From Escherichia coli (GTDB lineage Bacteria > Pseudomonadota > Gammaproteobacteria > Enterobacterales > Enterobacteriaceae), in assembly GCF_044647545.1 (NCBI RefSeq), contig NZ_CP172818.1: DNA of 64,000 nucleotides; one strand, written 5' to 3'. Position 1 is the first letter of the stretch. Each line of letters starts with the position of its first letter. Under the pieces are notes generated by a model. The model saw only the letters and a list, made by a program, of their open reading frames with translations, made no database searches and had not been told where the DNA came from. The position numbers were made by a program, and so were the translations under genes. Shown one piece after another: positions 4,598 to 61,580 of this stretch.

Positions 4598-5950
4598 ATG
4601 CTGAGTTTTCTCTGGGATTTGGCTTCGTTCATCGTTGCACTGGGTGTACTTATCACCGTGCATGAATTTGGTCATTTCTGGGTTGCCCGGCGTTGTGGTG
4701 TTCGCGTTGAGCGTTTCTCAATAGGGTTTGGTAAGGCGCTCTGGCGGCGAACTGATAAGCTCGGCACCGAATATGTTATCGCCCTGATCCCGTTGGGCGG
4801 TTATGTCAAAATGCTGGATGAGCGCGCAGAACCGGTCGTTCCGGAACTCCGCCACCATGCCTTCAATAATAAATCTGTCGGCCAACGAGCGGCGATTATT
4901 GCCGCAGGTCCGGTTGCAAACTTCATTTTTGCTATCTTTGCCTACTGGCTGGTTTTTATTATTGGTGTGCCTGGTGTACGTCCGGTGGTTGGCGAAATAG
5001 CAGCCAATTCGATAGCTGCGGAAGCACAAATTGCACCAGGTACGGAACTAAAAGCCGTAGATGGTATCGAAACGCCTGATTGGGATGCCGTGCGTTTGCA
5101 GTTGGTCGATAAAATTGGCGATGAAAGCACCACCATTACGGTAGCGCCATTTGGCAGCGACCAACGGCGGGATGTAAAGCTCGATTTACGTCACTGGGCG
5201 TTTGAGCCTGATAAAGAAGATCCGGTAACTTCGCTGGGGATTCGTCCTCGTGGGCCGCAAATTGAACCTGTACTGGAAAATGTGCAGCCAAACTCGGCGG
5301 CAAGCAAGGCAGGTTTGCAAGCAGGCGACAGGATCGTTAAAGTCGATGGTCAGCCCTTAACGCAGTGGGTGACCTTTGTGATGCTTGTCCGGGATAACCC
5401 GGGTAAATCCTTAGCGTTAGAAATCGAAAGGCAGGGGAATCCCTTGTCTTTGACATTAATCCCGGAGAGTAAACCGGGTAATGGTAAAGCGATTGGTTTT
5501 GTCGGTATTGAGCCGAAAGTCATTCCTTTGCCAGATGAGTATAAAGTTGTACGCCAGTATGGACCGTTCAACGCCATTGTCGAAGCCACGGACAAAACGT
5601 GGCAGTTGATGAAGCTGACGGTCAGTATGCTGGGAAAATTGATCACCGGTGATGTGAAACTGAACAACCTCAGTGGGCCGATCTCTATCGCCAAGGGGGC
5701 TGGGATGACAGCGGAACTCGGGGTTGTTTATTACCTGCCGTTTCTTGCGCTTATTAGCGTGAACTTAGGGATAATTAACCTGTTTCCGTTGCCCGTACTT
5801 GACGGGGGGCATCTGCTGTTCCTTGCGATCGAAAAGATCAAGGGCGGACCGGTATCCGAGCGGGTTCAAGACTTTTGTTATCGCATTGGCTCGATTCTGC
5901 TGGTGCTGTTAATGGGGCTTGCACTTTTCAATGATTTCTCTCGGTTATGA
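4598..5950 (+). CDS. rseP: regulated intramembrane proteolysis zinc metalloprotease RseP
   Basis: 450 aa from ATG at 4598 (MLSFLWDL...); HEFGHF zinc motif; PDZ region; track ORF starts 15 codons upstream. Confidence 0.92.
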
Positions 5951-53924: not shown

Positions 53925-54203
53925 TTTACCCAAATAGCGCCGCGTGAGTTCCAGTTCTCTCAAATCGTAAAAGTTTATCGGTAAGTTTGTAAATCAGGAT
54001 CCAGTCCGGTTCGACATGAGCATCGCGATAACCTTTCCATGAACCTTGCAGCGGGTGGTCTTTATAAACAGCTGGAAGCAGTAAAGTATTATTGATAAGA
54101 GCGTCATAAGATATTTCAATTTATTCATATCCTTATGACGCTTTTGTGCAAGTTTTACATCCTTTGAAAATTGTCCCGAGTATTCAATATCCCTTTGAAT
54201 CAT
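53925..54203 (-). pseudogene. yafQ: YafQ mRNA-interferase toxin, frameshifted
   Basis: First 36 codons from ATG at 54203 match YafQ; frame breaks near 54094-54096; the +1 frame continues with ...YKDHPLQGSWKGYRDAHVEPDWILIYKL...FERTGTHAALFG to 53925. Confidence 0.8.
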
Positions 54204-54205
54204 AT

Positions 54206-54466
54206 TTAAATTCCTAATTTATCAAATAAATCATCGGCGTCTTTGGCCTTATGAATACCAACGCCAGCTTCGCTGTTTTTGATTGATTGAATAGTTAATT
54301 GATTAGGCTCGCGTAAATCAAACGGCAATGCCTTTTCACGCGCGACCTTTGTGAGGGTTATGCGAACCAGGTCAGAGATGGTCAGCCCCATCCCGGCCAG
54401 TACGTCCGCCGCCTGATTCTTCAGATCTTCATCGATTCGGGCGCGAACAAACGCGTTAGCAGCCAT
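54206..54466 (-). CDS. dinJ: DinJ antitoxin
   Basis: 86-aa ORF MAANAFVRARIDEDLKNQAADVLAGMGLTISD; immediately upstream of yafQ. Confidence 0.92.
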   Translation of the reverse strand: MAANAFVRARIDEDLKNQAADVLAGMGLTISDLVRITLTKVAREKALPFDLREPNQLTIQSIKNSEAGVGIHKAKDADDLFDKLGI

Positions 54467-54675: not shown

Positions 54676-55425
54676 ATGTCTTTGCCGTCGATTCCCTCTT
54701 TTGTGTTGTCGGGATTACTGTTGCTTTGCTTGCCGTTTTCTTCATTTGCCAGCGCCACCACATCACATATCTCTTTCAGCTACGCCGCCCGCCAGCGGAT
54801 GCAAAACCGTGCGCGTTTATTAAAACAGTACCAAACCCATCTGAAAAAACAGGCCAGCTATATTGTGGAAGGCAATGCCGAAAGCAGAAGGGCGCTACGC
54901 CAGCACAACCGGGAGCAGATAAAACAGCATCCAGAATGGTTTCCTGCGCCGCTCAAGGCGAGTGACAGACGCTGGCAGGCGCTGGCGGAAAACAACCACT
55001 TTTTAAGCAGCGATCACCTGCATAACATCACCGAAGTGGCGATTCACCGCCTGGAGCAGCAGCTTGGCAAGCCTTATGTCTGGGGCGGCACGCGGCCCGA
55101 TAAAGGCTTCGACTGTAGCGGGTTGGTTTTTTATGCCTACAACAAGATCCTTGAGGCGAAGCTCCCGCGCACAGCCAATGAGATGTATCACTACCATCGG
55201 GCAACGATTGTGGCGAACAACGACCTGCGCCGGGGAGATTTGCTGTTTTTCCATATTCACAGCCGCGAGATAGCCGATCATATGGGGGTGTATCTGGGAG
55301 ACGGTCAGTTTATCGAGTCACCACGTACCGGCGAAACCATTCGGATAAGCCGGTTAGCTGAACCTTTCTGGCAGGATCATTTTTTAGGCGCGCGGCGGAT
55401 TTTGACGGAAGAGACGATTTTGTAG
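54676..55425 (+). CDS. yafL: NlpC/P60-family putative peptidoglycan endopeptidase
   Basis: 249 aa from MSLPSIPSFVLSG; signal peptide; conserved Cys (DCSGLV) and His. Confidence 0.85.
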   Translation: MSLPSIPSFVLSGLLLLCLPFSSFASATTSHISFSYAARQRMQNRARLLKQYQTHLKKQASYIVEGNAESRRALRQHNREQIKQHPEWFPAPLKASDRRWQALAENNHFLSSDHLHNITEVAIHRLEQQLGKPYVWGGTRPDKGFDCSGLVFYAYNKILEAKLPRTANEMYHYHRATIVANNDLRRGDLLFFHIHSREIADHMGVYLGDGQFIESPRTGETIRISRLAEPFWQDHFLGARRILTEETIL

Positions 55426-57182
55426 GCAGGGATCTCCCCCACAACACTCAACGCCCCCATAATCTTCAACTCCAGCTCGTCCGGCACTTCGTTATACGAC
55501 AGCACATGCAGCCCCGGCGCAAACAATCTCGCATAGCGCGCCAGCAAAGGGCGCAACTGCGGTGGCACCAGCAGCACAGGGTCTTTCCCCGCCGCTTTCA
55601 TCTGCTCCTTCACCTGCGGCATCGTACTCTGGAACTGGTTGAGCATATTCGGGTCTACCGGCACGCTGTCGAGCATCACTTTGCCGGCCTGTTGCGCCTG
55701 ATTCACCACGTTGGTCAGCAGATTTTCCAGCTCATTATTCAGCGTATACACCGTCAGCTCCTGCTTGCGAACGAACGGATGGGTAATGCTGCGCCGCAGC
55801 GCCAGGCGCACATCTGCCGCCAGCAGAATATGATCTTTGGTCACCGCACTACTGGCGACCAGCACGGTGGCGATGGTGACGATATCGCGCAGGGAAACGC
55901 CTTCAGTCAGCAGCGCCCGGTACACTTTCAGCAACTGGCTGTAATTCAGCGCCGCGCTCAAATCCTCCGCCAGTCGCGGTGCCATCGACGACAGGCGGTT
56001 ATGCAACTGCGTAATATCGTCATAGTTAAATAAATCAGGAATATAGCTGCGCACAATCTTATTCACATGCGTGGCAATTACGCTGGCGCTGTCGATCACC
56101 TGATACCCCATATTCAGCGCCTTCGCTTTCTGCGCAGGCTGAATCCAGGTGACCGGCATCCCATATGCCGGGTCATTCCCCAGTACGCCGTCAATCTCGC
56201 CGTAGGTTTCGCTGGAGGGCAGGGCCATCAGTTTATCCGCCGGAATATCCGCTTCATCAGCCTTAATGCCGTTGATGAAAATGGCGTACTGGCTGGGCTT
56301 GAGACGGAAGTTTTCCCGAATACGGATCTCCGGCAGCAGCACGCCGTTACCGTCGGATATCACCTGCCGCACGCCGCGAATCCGCTGGGTGAGCGGGTTC
56401 CCCTGCGCTTTGTCCACCAGCGCCACCAGCTTGTAGCCGAGGCTTAAGCTGATGGGCTCGATCAGCGGAATGGTTTCCCAACTGACCTGTTGCTCGCTGG
56501 TTTCGGTGATGGTTCGGGTCAGCGTTTCGAGGCTTTTCTCCTCCGCCTCCGCCGCCTGCGGGCGTTTGCTCATCCGCCAGCCGGTAAAGCCAAGCAGGGC
56601 GCTGAACAGCAAAAATGGCAGATGCGGCATCCCCGGCACCACCGCCAGCACAAACATGATCCCGGTGGCGGTGTAGAGCACCGACGGACTTGCCAGCAGC
56701 TGGTGGCGCACGTCATGGGCGATATCGCCGTTGTCGCTGACGCGGGTGACGATAATTGCCGCCGCGGTGGAGAGCAGCAGGGACGGGATCTGCGCCACCA
56801 GCCCGTCGCCGATAGTCATCAGCACATATTGCTGGAAGGCGGCGTCGGCGCTCAGGTTGTATTTGAAGATCCCGATACAGACGCCGCCGATCAGGTTGAT
56901 CGCCAGAATCATCATCCCGGCGATGGCATCGCCGCGCACAAACTTCGATGCCCCGTCCATTGCGCCGTAGAAATCGGCCTCGCTGGCAACATCTTTACGC
57001 CGGGTTTGTGCCTGCGCCTGGTTGATCAATCCGGCGTTAAGATCGGCGTCAATCGCCATCTGTTTACCGGGCATCGCGTCCAGGGTAAAGCGGGCAGAAA
57101 CCTCGGAAATACGCTCGGCCCCTTTGGTGACGACGATAAAGTTGATTGTCAACAGCGTCAGTAAATCCGAGCGTGAAAGCAT
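55377..57182 (-). pseudogene. lfhA: FlhA-like flagellar export protein remnant (Flag-2 cluster), 5'-truncated
   Basis: About 600-aa ORF with FlhA-family similarity (…FVRGDAIAG…, C-terminal cytoplasmic domain) lacking the N-terminal TM region and a credible start. Confidence 0.8.
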
Positions 57183-57912
57183 TATCGCCGCGCTACACGG
57201 GCAGTCGATTTTTAACGGTGGCGGGCTGTCGCCGTTAAATAAAATCAGCCCGTCTCATCCGTCAAAACCTGCCACCGTGGCAGTGCCGGAAGAGACGGAG
57301 AAAAAAGCGCGCGACGTCAACGAGAAAACGGCGCTGCTGAAGAAGAAATCCGCCACCGAGCTTGGCGAGCTGGCGACCAGTATCAATACCATCGCCCGTG
57401 ATGCGCATATGGAAGCGAATCTGGAGATGGAGATTGTTCCCCAGGGATTACGCGTGCTGATTAAAGACGACCAGAACCGCAATATGTTCGAACGCGGCAG
57501 CGCACAGATTATGCCGTTCTTTAAAACTTTGCTGGTGGAGCTTGCGCCAGTGTTCGACTCGCTCGATAACAAAATTATTATTACCGGGCATACCGATGCG
57601 ATGGCCTACAAAAACAATATCTACAATAACTGGAACCTTTCGGGTGACCGCGCGCTTTCGGCTCGTCGGGCGCTGGAAGAGGCAGGAATGCCGGAAGATA
57701 AAGTGATGCAGGTGAGCGCAATGGCGGACCAGATGCTGCTGGACGCGAAAAATCCGCAAAGCGCGGGCAACCGGCGCATTGAGATTATGGTGCTGACTAA
57801 AAGCGCGTCCGATACGCTGTATCAATACTTTGGTCAGCATGGGGATAAAGTGGTGCAGCCGCTGGTGCAAAAGCTGGATAAGCAGCAGGTGCTTTCACAG
57901 CGAACGCGTTAA
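57157..57912 (+). pseudogene. lafU: MotB/OmpA-like flagellar motor protein remnant (Flag-2 cluster), 5'-truncated
   Basis: C-terminal OmpA-like domain (NWNLSGDRALSARRALEEAG...NRRIEIMVL); no N-terminal TM segment or start codon; 5' boundary approximate. Confidence 0.7.
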
Positions 57913-57948: not shown

Positions 57949-57968
57949 CACTGTATACTTTACCAGTG
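57949..57968 (+). promoter_or_regulatory. LexA operator (SOS box) of dinB
   Basis: CACTGTATACTTTACCAGTG about 15 nt upstream of the dinB start. Confidence 0.8.
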
Positions 57969-57982
57969 TTGAGAGGTGAGCA

Positions 57983-59038
57983 ATGCGTAAAATCATTCAT
58001 GTGGATATGGACTGCTTTTTCGCAGCGGTGGAGATGCGCGACAATCCCGCCCTGCGCGATATCCCTATTGCTATTGGCGGCAGCCGCGAACGTCGGGGGG
58101 TGATCAGCACCGCCAATTATCCCGCGCGTAAATTTGGCGTACGCAGCGCTATGCCGACAGGGATGGCGCTCAAATTATGCCCACATCTCACGCTGCTTCC
58201 AGGGCGCTTTGACGCCTACAAAGAAGCCTCAAATCATATCCGCGAAATTTTCTCGCGCTATACCTCGCGCATTGAACCGTTATCACTGGATGAAGCCTAT
58301 CTCGACGTCACCGATAGTGTGCATTGCCACGGTTCTGCGACCCTCATCGCCCAGGAAATCCGTCAGACGATCTTTAACGAGCTGCAACTGACGGCATCTG
58401 CGGGCGTTGCGCCGGTAAAGTTTCTCGCCAAAATTGCTTCCGACATGAATAAACCCAACGGTCAGTTTGTGATTACGCCGGCAGAAGTTCCGGCATTTCT
58501 GCAAACCTTACCGCTGGCAAAAATTCCCGGCGTCGGCAAAGTCTCGGCGGCAAAACTGGAAGCGATGGGGCTGCGGACCTGCGGTGATGTGCAAAAGTGT
58601 GATCTGGTGACTCTGCTCAAACGTTTTGGCAAATTTGGCCGCATTTTGTGGGAGCGTAGTCAGGGGATTGACGAGCGCGACGTTAACAGCGAGCGGTTGC
58701 GAAAATCCGTCGGCGTGGAACGCACGATGGCGGAAGATATTCATCACTGGTCTGAATGTGAAGCGATTATCGAGCTGCTGTATCCTGAACTTGAACGCCG
58801 TCTGGCAAAGGTAAAACCTGATTTACTGATTGCTCGCCAGGGGGTGAAATTAAAGTTCGACGATTTTCAGCAAACTACTCAGGAGCACGTCTGGCCGCGG
58901 CTGAATAAAGCTGATCTGATCGCCACCGCGCGTAAAACCTGGGATGAACGTCGCGGCGGGCGCGGTGTGCGACTGGTGGGGCTGCATGTGACGTTGCTTG
59001 ACCCTCAAATGGAAAGACAACTGGTGCTGGGATTATGA
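57983..59038 (+). CDS. dinB: DNA polymerase IV (Y-family translesion polymerase)
   Basis: 351-aa [25 protein letters not shown]. Confidence 0.95.
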
Positions 59039-59793: not shown

Positions 59794-60246
59794 ATGAATA
59801 ACATACAAATAAGAAACTATCAGCCTGGCGATTTTCAGCAACTATGCGCTATTTTCCTTAGAGCGGTTACGATGACCGCCAGTCAGCATTATTCACCACA
59901 ACAAATTGCCGCCTGGGCGCAGATTGACGAATCTCGCTGGAAGGAGAAACTCGCGAAATCACAAGTGCGGGTTGCAGTTATTAATGCACAACCGGTTGGT
60001 TTTATTACCCGCATTGAACATTATATCGATATGTTATTTGTTGAACCTGAATACACCCGACGCGGGGTTGCCAGCGCTTTGTTAAAACCATTGATTAAGT
60101 CTGAATCCGAACTTACGGTGGACGCCAGCATAACCGCAAAGCCCTTTTTTGAACGTTATGGTTTTCAGACAGTTAAGCAGCAGTGCGTTGAATGCCGGGG
60201 AGAGTGGTTTACTAATTTTTATATGCGATATAAACCGCAACATTAA
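59794..60246 (+). CDS. yafP: GNAT-family N-acetyltransferase
   Basis: 150-aa ORF; acetyl-CoA-binding motif RRGVASALL. Confidence 0.88.
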   Translation: MNNIQIRNYQPGDFQQLCAIFLRAVTMTASQHYSPQQIAAWAQIDESRWKEKLAKSQVRVAVINAQPVGFITRIEHYIDMLFVEPEYTRRGVASALLKPLIKSESELTVDASITAKPFFERYGFQTVKQQCVECRGEWFTNFYMRYKPQH

Positions 60247-60424
60247 ATCCAGCTTGCAATGAAAATAACGCCCGCCTAGTATGTGTGCGTTTTCTTATTC
60301 CACAAACTGCAAGGAGGTAAATCATGACAAATCCTTTATCAATGACTCTTTGCAGACCTTTCCAGGATTAATTCTTTTTTTCTTGCCCTGGATTCGTCTG
60401 CCATTTCCTGATTTTTATTCATAA

Positions 60425-60691
60425 ATGGAATGGTACATGGGCAAATATATTCGTCCCTTATCCGATGCGGTATTTACCATCGCATCTGATGACCTGTGGA
60501 TCGAGAGTTTAGCGATCCAACAATTACACACCACGGCAAATTTACCCAACATGCAACGCGTAGTAGGGATGCCAGATTTACATCCCGGACGCGGCTATCC
60601 GATTGGCGCAGCGTTCTTCTCCGTAGGCCGTTTTTACCCGGCAAGACGTCGCGGTAACGGTGCTGGAAACAGAAACGGGTCGCTACTCTGA
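60425..60691 (+). pseudogene. ykfJ: RtcB-like RNA ligase N-terminal fragment
   Basis: 88-aa ORF with RtcB-type motif GMPDLHPGRGYPIGAAF, then terminates; overlaps prfH. Confidence 0.7.
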
Positions 60692-61160
60692 CACACTGCG
60701 TTCGGCGCTGATTTCTCTGGATGGCGATAACGCATGGGCTCTAAGCGAAAGCTGGTGTGGCACTATCCAGTGGATTTGTCCGAGTCCGTATCGGCCTCAT
60801 CATGGGCGCAAAAACTGGTTTCTGGGCATTGGGCGTTTTACCGCTGATGAGCAGGAACAATCCGACGCGATCCGTTATGAGACGCTGCGTTCGTCGGGGC
60901 CGGGCGGTCAACATGTCAATAAAACCGACTCGGCGGTACGCGCCACGCATCTGGCATCCGGTATTAGCGTGAAGGTTCAGTCAGAGCGCAGTCAGCATGC
61001 TAACAAACGGCTGGCGCGATTACTGATTGCCTGGAAGCTGGAACAACAGCAACAGGAAAATAGCGCGGCGCTGAAATCGCAGCGGCGAATGTTCCATCAT
61101 CAAATTGAACGTGGCAATCCGCGACGGATATTTACCGGGATGGCTTTTGTTGCTGTGTAA
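60660..61160 (+). CDS. prfH: peptide chain release factor homolog RF-H (likely N-terminally truncated)
   Basis: 166-aa ORF with GGQ motif ([20 protein letters not shown]). Confidence 0.85.
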
Positions 61161-61580
61161 TTGAAGAATGAAACTCCCGCCGTTTTCTATATGAAAGCGC
61201 GCGCAAAACGAAAGAATCTCATTTTATCTCTCTTCCCTTTTTTTGATAAATCTTTCTTGTAGAACTTCTGTTGCTTCATCGCGCCGGTTTTTGGCTTAGT
61301 TTGGCCATTCGCCCGTTTTTGATCTTTTTGGCGTCGGGTGGTAACGCCAAACTCACTTTTTCCTCTTAGGCATAATATGGTTTGTCCGCCGGGGGGCTAG
61401 TTTTGGGCGGAAAAGAGAAAAACCCTTTCCAAATTGTTTTTCGACTGCGATCTGGGTCTTTCGGTAACACTTTCCTACATAGGTATTTTTTTTTTATTTT
61501 TAAAAAAAAAAAAAATCAAAAAAAGATAGCCATTGGCTTCAAACAGAAGTCCACGCCCGCAGGCGTGGACATTATCGTAA

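Follow-up and report, generated by a model that had tools for sequence, protein, structure and literature searches.

Between the genes yafL and dinB of a 64,000-nt stretch of Escherichia coli DNA (contig NZ_CP172818.1 of assembly GCF_044647545.1; the whole stretch is called the window here, and positions are counted from its first letter) lie the 3' parts of two genes, lfhA and lafU. The former is the FlhA-type export-gate gene of a second, lateral-type flagellar system (Flag-2), and the latter is a MotB-type stator gene. Positions 55446-57912 are very probably the canonical Flag-2 scar, consisting of the 3' 567 codons of lfhA and the 3' 254 codons of lafU, with about 36 kb lost from between them. 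The scar itself is already a known feature, since K-12 annotates both genes as pseudogenes and the literature describes it. With regard to its origin, we infer that the deletion is probably a repeated, nucleotide-precise event rather than a single accident spread by descent, because the same joint is present on unrelated E. coli haplotypes and between genus-specific flanks in four or more other genera. On balance, we also favor recurrent precise excision between conserved, partly palindromic sites, which would have arisen separately in Escherichia, Citrobacter, Kluyvera, Atlantibacter, and relatives, with probably several events in E. coli alone; such a process would imply an unrecognized site-directed mechanism.

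Deletion joint and gene fragments

The locus of strain Z1323HEC0462, in which lfhA (697 aa) and lafU (307 aa) are separated by approximately 40 genes, was used as the intact reference. In a BLAST comparison with this locus, the lfhA-side match stops at 57146 and the lafU-side match begins at 57141. When the window, the lfhA side, and the lafU side were displayed together base by base, the sole perfect overlap of both sides was the trinucleotide GAT at 57144-57146. This 3-bp identity, common to both parental sites, is the deletion joint, at which the fragments abut head to head, with lfhA codon 131 beside LafU codon 53. The parental sites, GTTGAT/GATCATCAG and GTGGAT/TGTCAACAG (the slash marks the breakpoint), match at 11 of 15 positions, and K-12 aligns across the joint without any gap. 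A preliminary description of this DNA, made from its letters only, had proposed an alignment to the intact Flag-2 locus of enteroaggregative E. coli 042. This alignment mapped both end points: the equivalent deletion is the loss of NC_017626.1 286386-322393 (36,008 bp), which joins 286385 to 322394.

The lfhA remnant (55446-57146, minus strand) comprises codons 131-697, all 567 of which are open, and codons 1-130 are gone; its ungapped alignment to the intact lfhA of strain Z1323HEC0462 is at 95.9%. The product of the minus-strand frame matches the Pfam FHIPEP model at positions 99-656/657 (E 4e-189), approximately the first 100 positions being missing. The preliminary description had reported a FlhA-like frame that loses similarity between 57120 and 57180, and the end of lfhA homology at 57146 falls within this range. 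The lafU remnant (57147-57912, plus strand), as delimited by alignment to intact lafU, starts at the third and last base of codon 53 and extends to the stop, and codons 1-52 are gone. OmpA is the only Pfam domain matched by its product, and lafU homology begins at 57141/57144, in agreement with the earlier view of a MotB/OmpA-like C-terminal domain. Full-length LafU relatives contain PF13677 and PF00691, whereas truncated forms contain PF00691 alone; the lost part of LafU includes the transmembrane helix AFADFTLAMMALFMTLW and the plug. Both fragments are unfit for their original function, LfhA' being without the start of the FHIPEP membrane region and LafU' without its membrane anchor and plug. 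For an FlhA-type export gate, the 130 N-terminal codons are absent and the partner genes flhB and fliPQR lie in the deleted 36 kb; for a MotB-type stator, residues 1-52 and PF13677 are gone and lafT (motA) is deleted.

Both frames had also been described as having no start. The N-terminal parts are truly missing, but mechanical starts exist, namely an ATG at 57182 (minus strand) and a GTG at 57127 (plus strand). The ATG sits 12 codons upstream of the joint: these spurious codons, MLSRSDLLTLLT (57147-57182, minus strand; delimited from the open reading frame (ORF) list and the joint position), are lafU antisense and supply the start to the lfhA fragment. The GTG is used by the NCBI pipeline in E. 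coli FDAARGOS_497, the nearest complete genome (99.9% identical), to produce a 261-aa 'LafU' coding sequence (CDS 4908-5693, corresponding to window positions 57127-57912), the beginning of which (57127-57146, plus strand) consists of lfhA antisense codons (V/M-TTIKL plus the first two bases of an Ile codon). Neither start restores the missing N-terminal parts, and each lies in the antisense of the other fragment. In the Atlantibacter scar, MFLRSFSLTLLT is analogous to the spurious codons of the window, and the peptide MTTIKLIVNSVSK, derived from lfhA antisense, is seen in many genera. The two ORFs of the window can be regarded as settled remnants, and the automatic naming of the lafU fragment as an intact protein is misleading.

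The gene order over 54.6-59.0 kb is yafL (plus strand), a minus-strand ORF (55377-57182, 601 aa), a plus-strand ORF (57022-57912, 296 aa), and dinB (57983-59038), within the broader context yafJ-dpaA-yafQ-dinJ-yafL, lfhA' lafU', dinB-yafNOP. According to the ORF list of the window, the yafL-dinB interval holds the two fragments only, without any other Flag-2 gene, which bears out the earlier statement that no intact system is left. FDAARGOS_497 is annotated alike, its lfhA fragment being labeled 'FlhA, incomplete, missing N-terminus' and the second ORF lafU, and in K-12 MG1655 lfhA (b0229) and lafU (b0230) are pseudogenes at the same site. The assignment to the known Flag-2 remnant was therefore correct, since the gene context, both truncated genes, and the joint agree with the published scar and with K-12 b0229/b0230.

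The joint across haplotypes and genera

The E. coli census set comprised 5,426 complete genomes, 4,085 of which fully cover a 100-nt query spanning the joint. The interior 390 nt of lfhA are present in 1,291 of the 5,426 genomes and the lafT-lafU-side interior end in 1,323. Approximately 98.8% of the genomes without the lfhA-side interior end carry this one joint, and other configurations amount to a few dozen. The occurrence of the joint in thousands of independent complete genomes rules out an assembly artifact. Seventeen matches to the lfhA-lafU region in the E. coli genome search were on records labeled as plasmids. In the literature, passages of De Maayer et al. 2020 (PMC6993521) describe the lfhA/lafU scar, citing Ren et al. 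2005, and report a truncated outer pair in 531 of 4,028 Enterobacterales strains, Citrobacter included; a passage of Archer et al. 2011 (PMC3032704), also citing Ren et al. 2005, gives the same scar in K-12 and B.

We joined the two flanks of an intact strain into a 'virtual scar' and searched it against all E. coli genomes (positions with a minus or plus sign are distances in nt from the joint on the lfhA and lafU sides, respectively). Each of the eight scar genomes listed for the virtual scar of CREC-591 (intact, B1-type) matches it at 100.0% across 3,000 nt, and between CREC-591 and O91 RM7190 (scar) the identity extends from -2011 to +3881. On the D-type haplotype, 042 (intact) and C4 (scar) have five differences from -4688 to +953 (5.6 kb). 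The whole lfhA remnant is identical between 042 and ST69 (scar), and a foreign tract begins at most 67 nt from the joint on the other side (+67 to +1289, with 43 differing sites). On the B2-type haplotype, no difference separates MSB2_1A (intact) from 82.0311 (scar) between -482 and +3358; the identical stretches of the B1- and B2-type pairs measure 3.8-5.9 kb. These three haplotypes are approximately 5% apart, with several mutual differences within 70 nt of the joint. The finding of scar and intact alleles with the same flanks on three distinct haplotypes indicates that the presence or absence of the 36 kb switches without flank change on at least three deeply separated E. coli backgrounds.

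Moreover, in a comparison of 9 scar with 5 intact alleles, nucleotide diversity up to the joint is the same inside either class as it is between them. There are no fixed differences between the two classes, and the nearest polymorphic sites (-11 and +67 to +80) are common to both states. A sharp change of haplotype at the breakpoint inside intact lfhA, such as site-bounded exchange would leave, was sought in five sequences, which displayed a general mosaic only. The 1,701-nt lfhA part and the 765-nt lafU part contain no gap and no stop in the 9 scar and 5 (later 6) intact strains. Among scar alleles, the synonymous divergence (dS) is 0.17-0.28 and the ratio of nonsynonymous to synonymous divergence (dN/dS) is 0.01-0.05, and intact alleles have the same values. 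Across E. coli alleles, scar and intact alike, the synonymous divergence of the lfhA remnant is 0.17-0.30; synonymous divergence between E. coli strains is usually several-fold lower. The left ends of several identity blocks (-482, -441, and -383) lie near the Chi octamer at 56699 (approximately -447). Five Chi octamers are located within 750 nt of the joint (56699-56706 and 57531-57538 on the plus strand; 56414, 56423, and 56795 on the minus strand), and the whole window contains 16, compared with 2 expected by chance.

Beyond E. coli, a scan of species representatives gave, among the matches listed, one E. albertii scar and two intact Citrobacter loci, and other genera were reached via protein searches. 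A search with the LafU fragment detected truncated LafU without the MotB-plug domain in Citrobacter gillenii, C. amalonaticus, Citrobacter sp., Kluyvera ascorbata, Kluyvera sp., Atlantibacter hermannii, Atlantibacter sp., and strain H11S18. Those proteins in which sequence before IVNSVSK is retained all start with TTIKL or KL, which is lfhA antisense. At the DNA level, the order yafL, lfhA', lafU' and the joint AARTTRAT/YGTNAAYAGC are present in E. albertii, Kluyvera, Citrobacter, Atlantibacter, and H11S18, with genus-specific bases on both sides. The crossover follows AARTTRAT in seven taxa, and in each case in which both parental sites were observed, they have the core AT in common. In the E. 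albertii type strain, the joint sequence is identical, and the lfhA fragment carries in addition a 22-bp frameshifting deletion. In E. albertii NBRC 107761, the gene order beyond the lafU fragment is unlike that of E. coli, and no dinB homolog was found by tblastn in this locus.

The flanks of these scars follow the species that carry them. Next to the joint, the Kluyvera scar matches the Kluyvera intact locus at 40 of 40 positions and E. coli at 31 of 40, and Kluyvera scar and intact sequences are 98.6% identical over 3.3 kb of the right flank. In Atlantibacter subterranea, scar and intact sequences are 99.0% identical over 2.65 kb of the lfhA flank, the last 116 nt being identical and the divergence starting exactly at the joint. 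The 567 lfhA codons are open and gap-free in all 21 sequences aligned, the only exception among scar taxa being E. albertii; the genera are 17-26% apart in nucleotides, and the scars form no clade. Judging from these alignments, transfer of the scar between genera is excluded, because the flanks are genus-specific. The preliminary description had held that one deletion removed everything between lfhA and lafU. It is true that the 36,008 bp between them are gone, but 'one' overreaches, given the joint on unrelated haplotypes and in other genera.

Proposed recurrent deletion and alternative explanations

Only 2-3 bases are shared at the crossover, whereas by rough arithmetic thousands of short repeats better than this are to be expected in 36 kb. 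A single joint therefore cannot be explained by chance or by slippage driven by homology, and some site-directed process would be needed. The joint formed within the 2-3-bp identity (AT/GAT). As a speculative working guess, breakage might take place at two palindromic sites, or recombination between them, across the shared central AT. The lafU-side breakpoint lies in the 3-nt spacer, that is, the tip, of the quasi-palindrome TGACGCTGTGGA-TTG-TCAACAGCGTCA, whose 12-nt arms are 92% complementary, and the lfhA-side breakpoint is 2 nt off the center of the perfect 12-nt palindrome TGATGA-TCATCA. These palindromes may be relevant. Polymorphism around the joint is mildly reduced (lowest 4-8% of windows). 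A reading of the sites as terminal inverted repeats was rejected: the interior ends share approximately 16 of 23 bases in a hand alignment, a likeness that follows from the similar hydrophobic helices encoded by the two genes. Any likeness of these sites to dif (Xer) or invertase sites, or to the gyrase cleavage consensus, seemed unconvincing.

Several points weigh against recurrent precise deletion. The palindromes may merely reflect the coding of similar hydrophobic helices in opposite orientation, and they are kept only in part in Kluyvera and Citrobacter; likewise, the low polymorphism at the joint may simply reflect the coding of conserved hydrophobic helices and is not taken as evidence of a conserved site. 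Recombinase genes other than insertion sequence (IS) transposases are absent from the annotation of two intact loci, and a Pfam scan of nine Flag-2 proteins, including non-flagellar and unassigned ones, gave no recombinase domain. The reciprocal circle joint, expected in E. coli as ...GACGCTGTGGATGATCATCAGGATGA..., had no full-length match in the 5,426 E. coli genomes and none in metagenome contigs, although absence from assemblies is weak evidence. Recombination is active in this region, with tracts beside the joint and with the Chi octamers at 56699 and 57531 near several block boundaries, and homologous exchange of state between strains of the same haplotype could also give identical flanks. 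The number of independent events in E. coli is thus uncertain, because such exchange leaves no trace. The scar partners were best matches chosen from thousands of genomes, each genus was represented by a handful of genomes, and part of the recurrence points may already be published (Ren et al. 2005).

The classical account, in which one ancient deletion was inherited and spread by homologous recombination while its flanks were homogenized by gene conversion from intact strains, survives best among the alternatives, but we consider it unlikely. It would readily accommodate the identity of the joint in 4,085 genomes, as the 2-3-bp identity makes chance recurrence very unlikely, together with the recombination tracts beside the joint (such as ST69 versus 042), the blocks with left ends at -482, -441, and -383 near Chi 56699, and a later gain of Flag-2 in a scar-bearing lineage, which a passage of an ST131 study (PMC5369007) reports, citing Ben Zakour et al. 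On the other hand, it cannot account for flanks that remain genus-specific as far as the joint itself in Kluyvera, Citrobacter, and Atlantibacter, nor for remnants that are 17-26% divergent with neither stop nor indel. In E. coli, it would need crossovers within approximately 11-67 nt of the joint, on both sides and on at least two haplotypes. A single ancient scar that stayed open and indel-free and matched the intact alleles of each species would also mean that the fragments are under strong selection, which is otherwise unsupported: the N-termini are missing, E. albertii has a frameshift, and the lfhA stop is lost in the window.

A further alternative, to which we give somewhat less credence, is that Flag-2 is an island that is excised, and perhaps also re-integrated, in a site-specific manner, with the breakpoints as attachment sites and the scar as an empty site. 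The central AT common to both sites in every genus, the quasi-palindromic arms, the switching of state without flank change, and the use of one joint in approximately 98.8% of losses would fit such an element. However, no integrase or recombinase gene was found in the cluster (two annotated intact loci and nine scanned proteins), and searches of metagenome contigs and of the 5,426 E. coli genomes gave no circle joint. Kluyvera and Citrobacter retain the palindrome only in part, and the 'empty site' cannot be the original target, because it is made of gene fragments.

It is very improbable that the scar is old because LfhA', LafU', or both are expressed and selected for a new role. In favor of such a role, 9 E. 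coli scar strains and four other genera have all 567 lfhA codons and the lafU frame open, dN/dS is 0.01-0.05, mechanical starts are present, NCBI calls LafU a CDS, and a weak promoter-like site lies at 57208-57181 (minus strand). Against it, the -10 box of this site abuts the ATG at 57182 and leaves no leader, both proteins are without membrane-anchoring N-termini, E. albertii carries the 22-bp frameshifting deletion, the window has lost the lfhA stop, K-12 curators call both genes pseudogenes, and a low dN/dS is equally expected of recent derivatives of working genes, as the identical scar and intact flanks support.

The identity of the joint across haplotypes and genera offers a lead beyond the account of a one-off accident. 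If one exact joint does recur across genera, there would be a directed route for shedding a whole costly flagellar system, and the patchy distribution of Flag-2 would reflect repeated loss rather than one loss followed by spread. Recurrent precise deletion at this locus would also provide a tractable case of a large, precise deletion with almost no homology, in which a host enzyme or a DNA structure acts on a whole flagellar system.

Neighboring features and comparison with known systems

On the yafL side, the natural stop of lfhA has been lost, and the minus-strand frame reads through 55377-55445, 22 codons into the 3' end of yafL, as seen from the translation and the alignment with FDAARGOS_497. 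Compared with that genome, the yafL-lfhA intergenic region is short by approximately 80 bp at 55426-55445, including a GC-rich hairpin, and the lfhA stop is altered. The spacer at this 3' end of lfhA is variable: it holds rayT and repetitive extragenic palindromic (REP) sequences in K-12, hicAB in O104:H4 and O91, ISEc31 in ST69, and nothing in the window. On the other side, CTGTATACTTTACCAG lies at 57951-57966, between the lafU stop and dinB, where the deletion has left it intact; its form is that of a LexA box (dinB regulation).

Upstream of yafL, the toxin gene yafQ (53926-54203, minus strand) is frameshifted by a 1-nt deletion relative to K-12 near 54099, and FDAARGOS_497 is annotated alike; the antitoxin gene dinJ (54206-54466) beside it is intact. 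A second deletion scar is present at 60204-61179, where the first approximately 200 nt of an rtcB-family RNA ligase gene are fused to the 3' part of prfH. Approximately 1 kb is missing there, with a 9-nt overlap at 60635-60643, and both genes are intact in MSB2_1A. Over the stretch compared (60421-60958), the window is collinear with ykfJ/prfH of K-12.

In comparison with the survey of De Maayer et al. 2020 (PMC6993521), as far as its passages on truncated pairs go, the same pairs are found here in Citrobacter, Kluyvera, and Atlantibacter. There, direct repeats at the cluster ends are taken to suggest recombination as the route of loss (passages of PMC6993521), whereas the joint examined here is nucleotide-identical across genera and lies on the own haplotype of each species. 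The scar of the window resembles that of K-12, where lfhA was formerly named fhiA and lafU formerly mbhA, in having the same fragments, the same neighbors yafL and dinB, and the same joint. It differs from K-12 in approximately 5% nucleotide divergence, in the lack of the rayT/REP block between yafL and lfhA, and in the loss of approximately 80 bp that include the lfhA stop. The window is also collinear with the intact Flag-2 locus of E. coli 042 in the flanking genes and in the outer parts of both lfhA and lafU; unlike the window, this locus keeps 36,008 bp with approximately 40 flagellar and accessory genes between the breakpoints. Comparable systems are the precise excision of Tn10 and Tn5, the skin element of Bacillus, and the attachment sites of large serine recombinases, where the joint left by the loss of a large segment is reproducible, the core common to both ends is very short, and the sites are palindromic in part. 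Although Flag-2 is without long terminal inverted repeats, an element-encoded recombinase, or a detected circle, and its loss destroys two genes and restores none, the Flag-2 scar is like these precisely excised elements in its reproducible joint, its very short core, and its partly palindromic sites.

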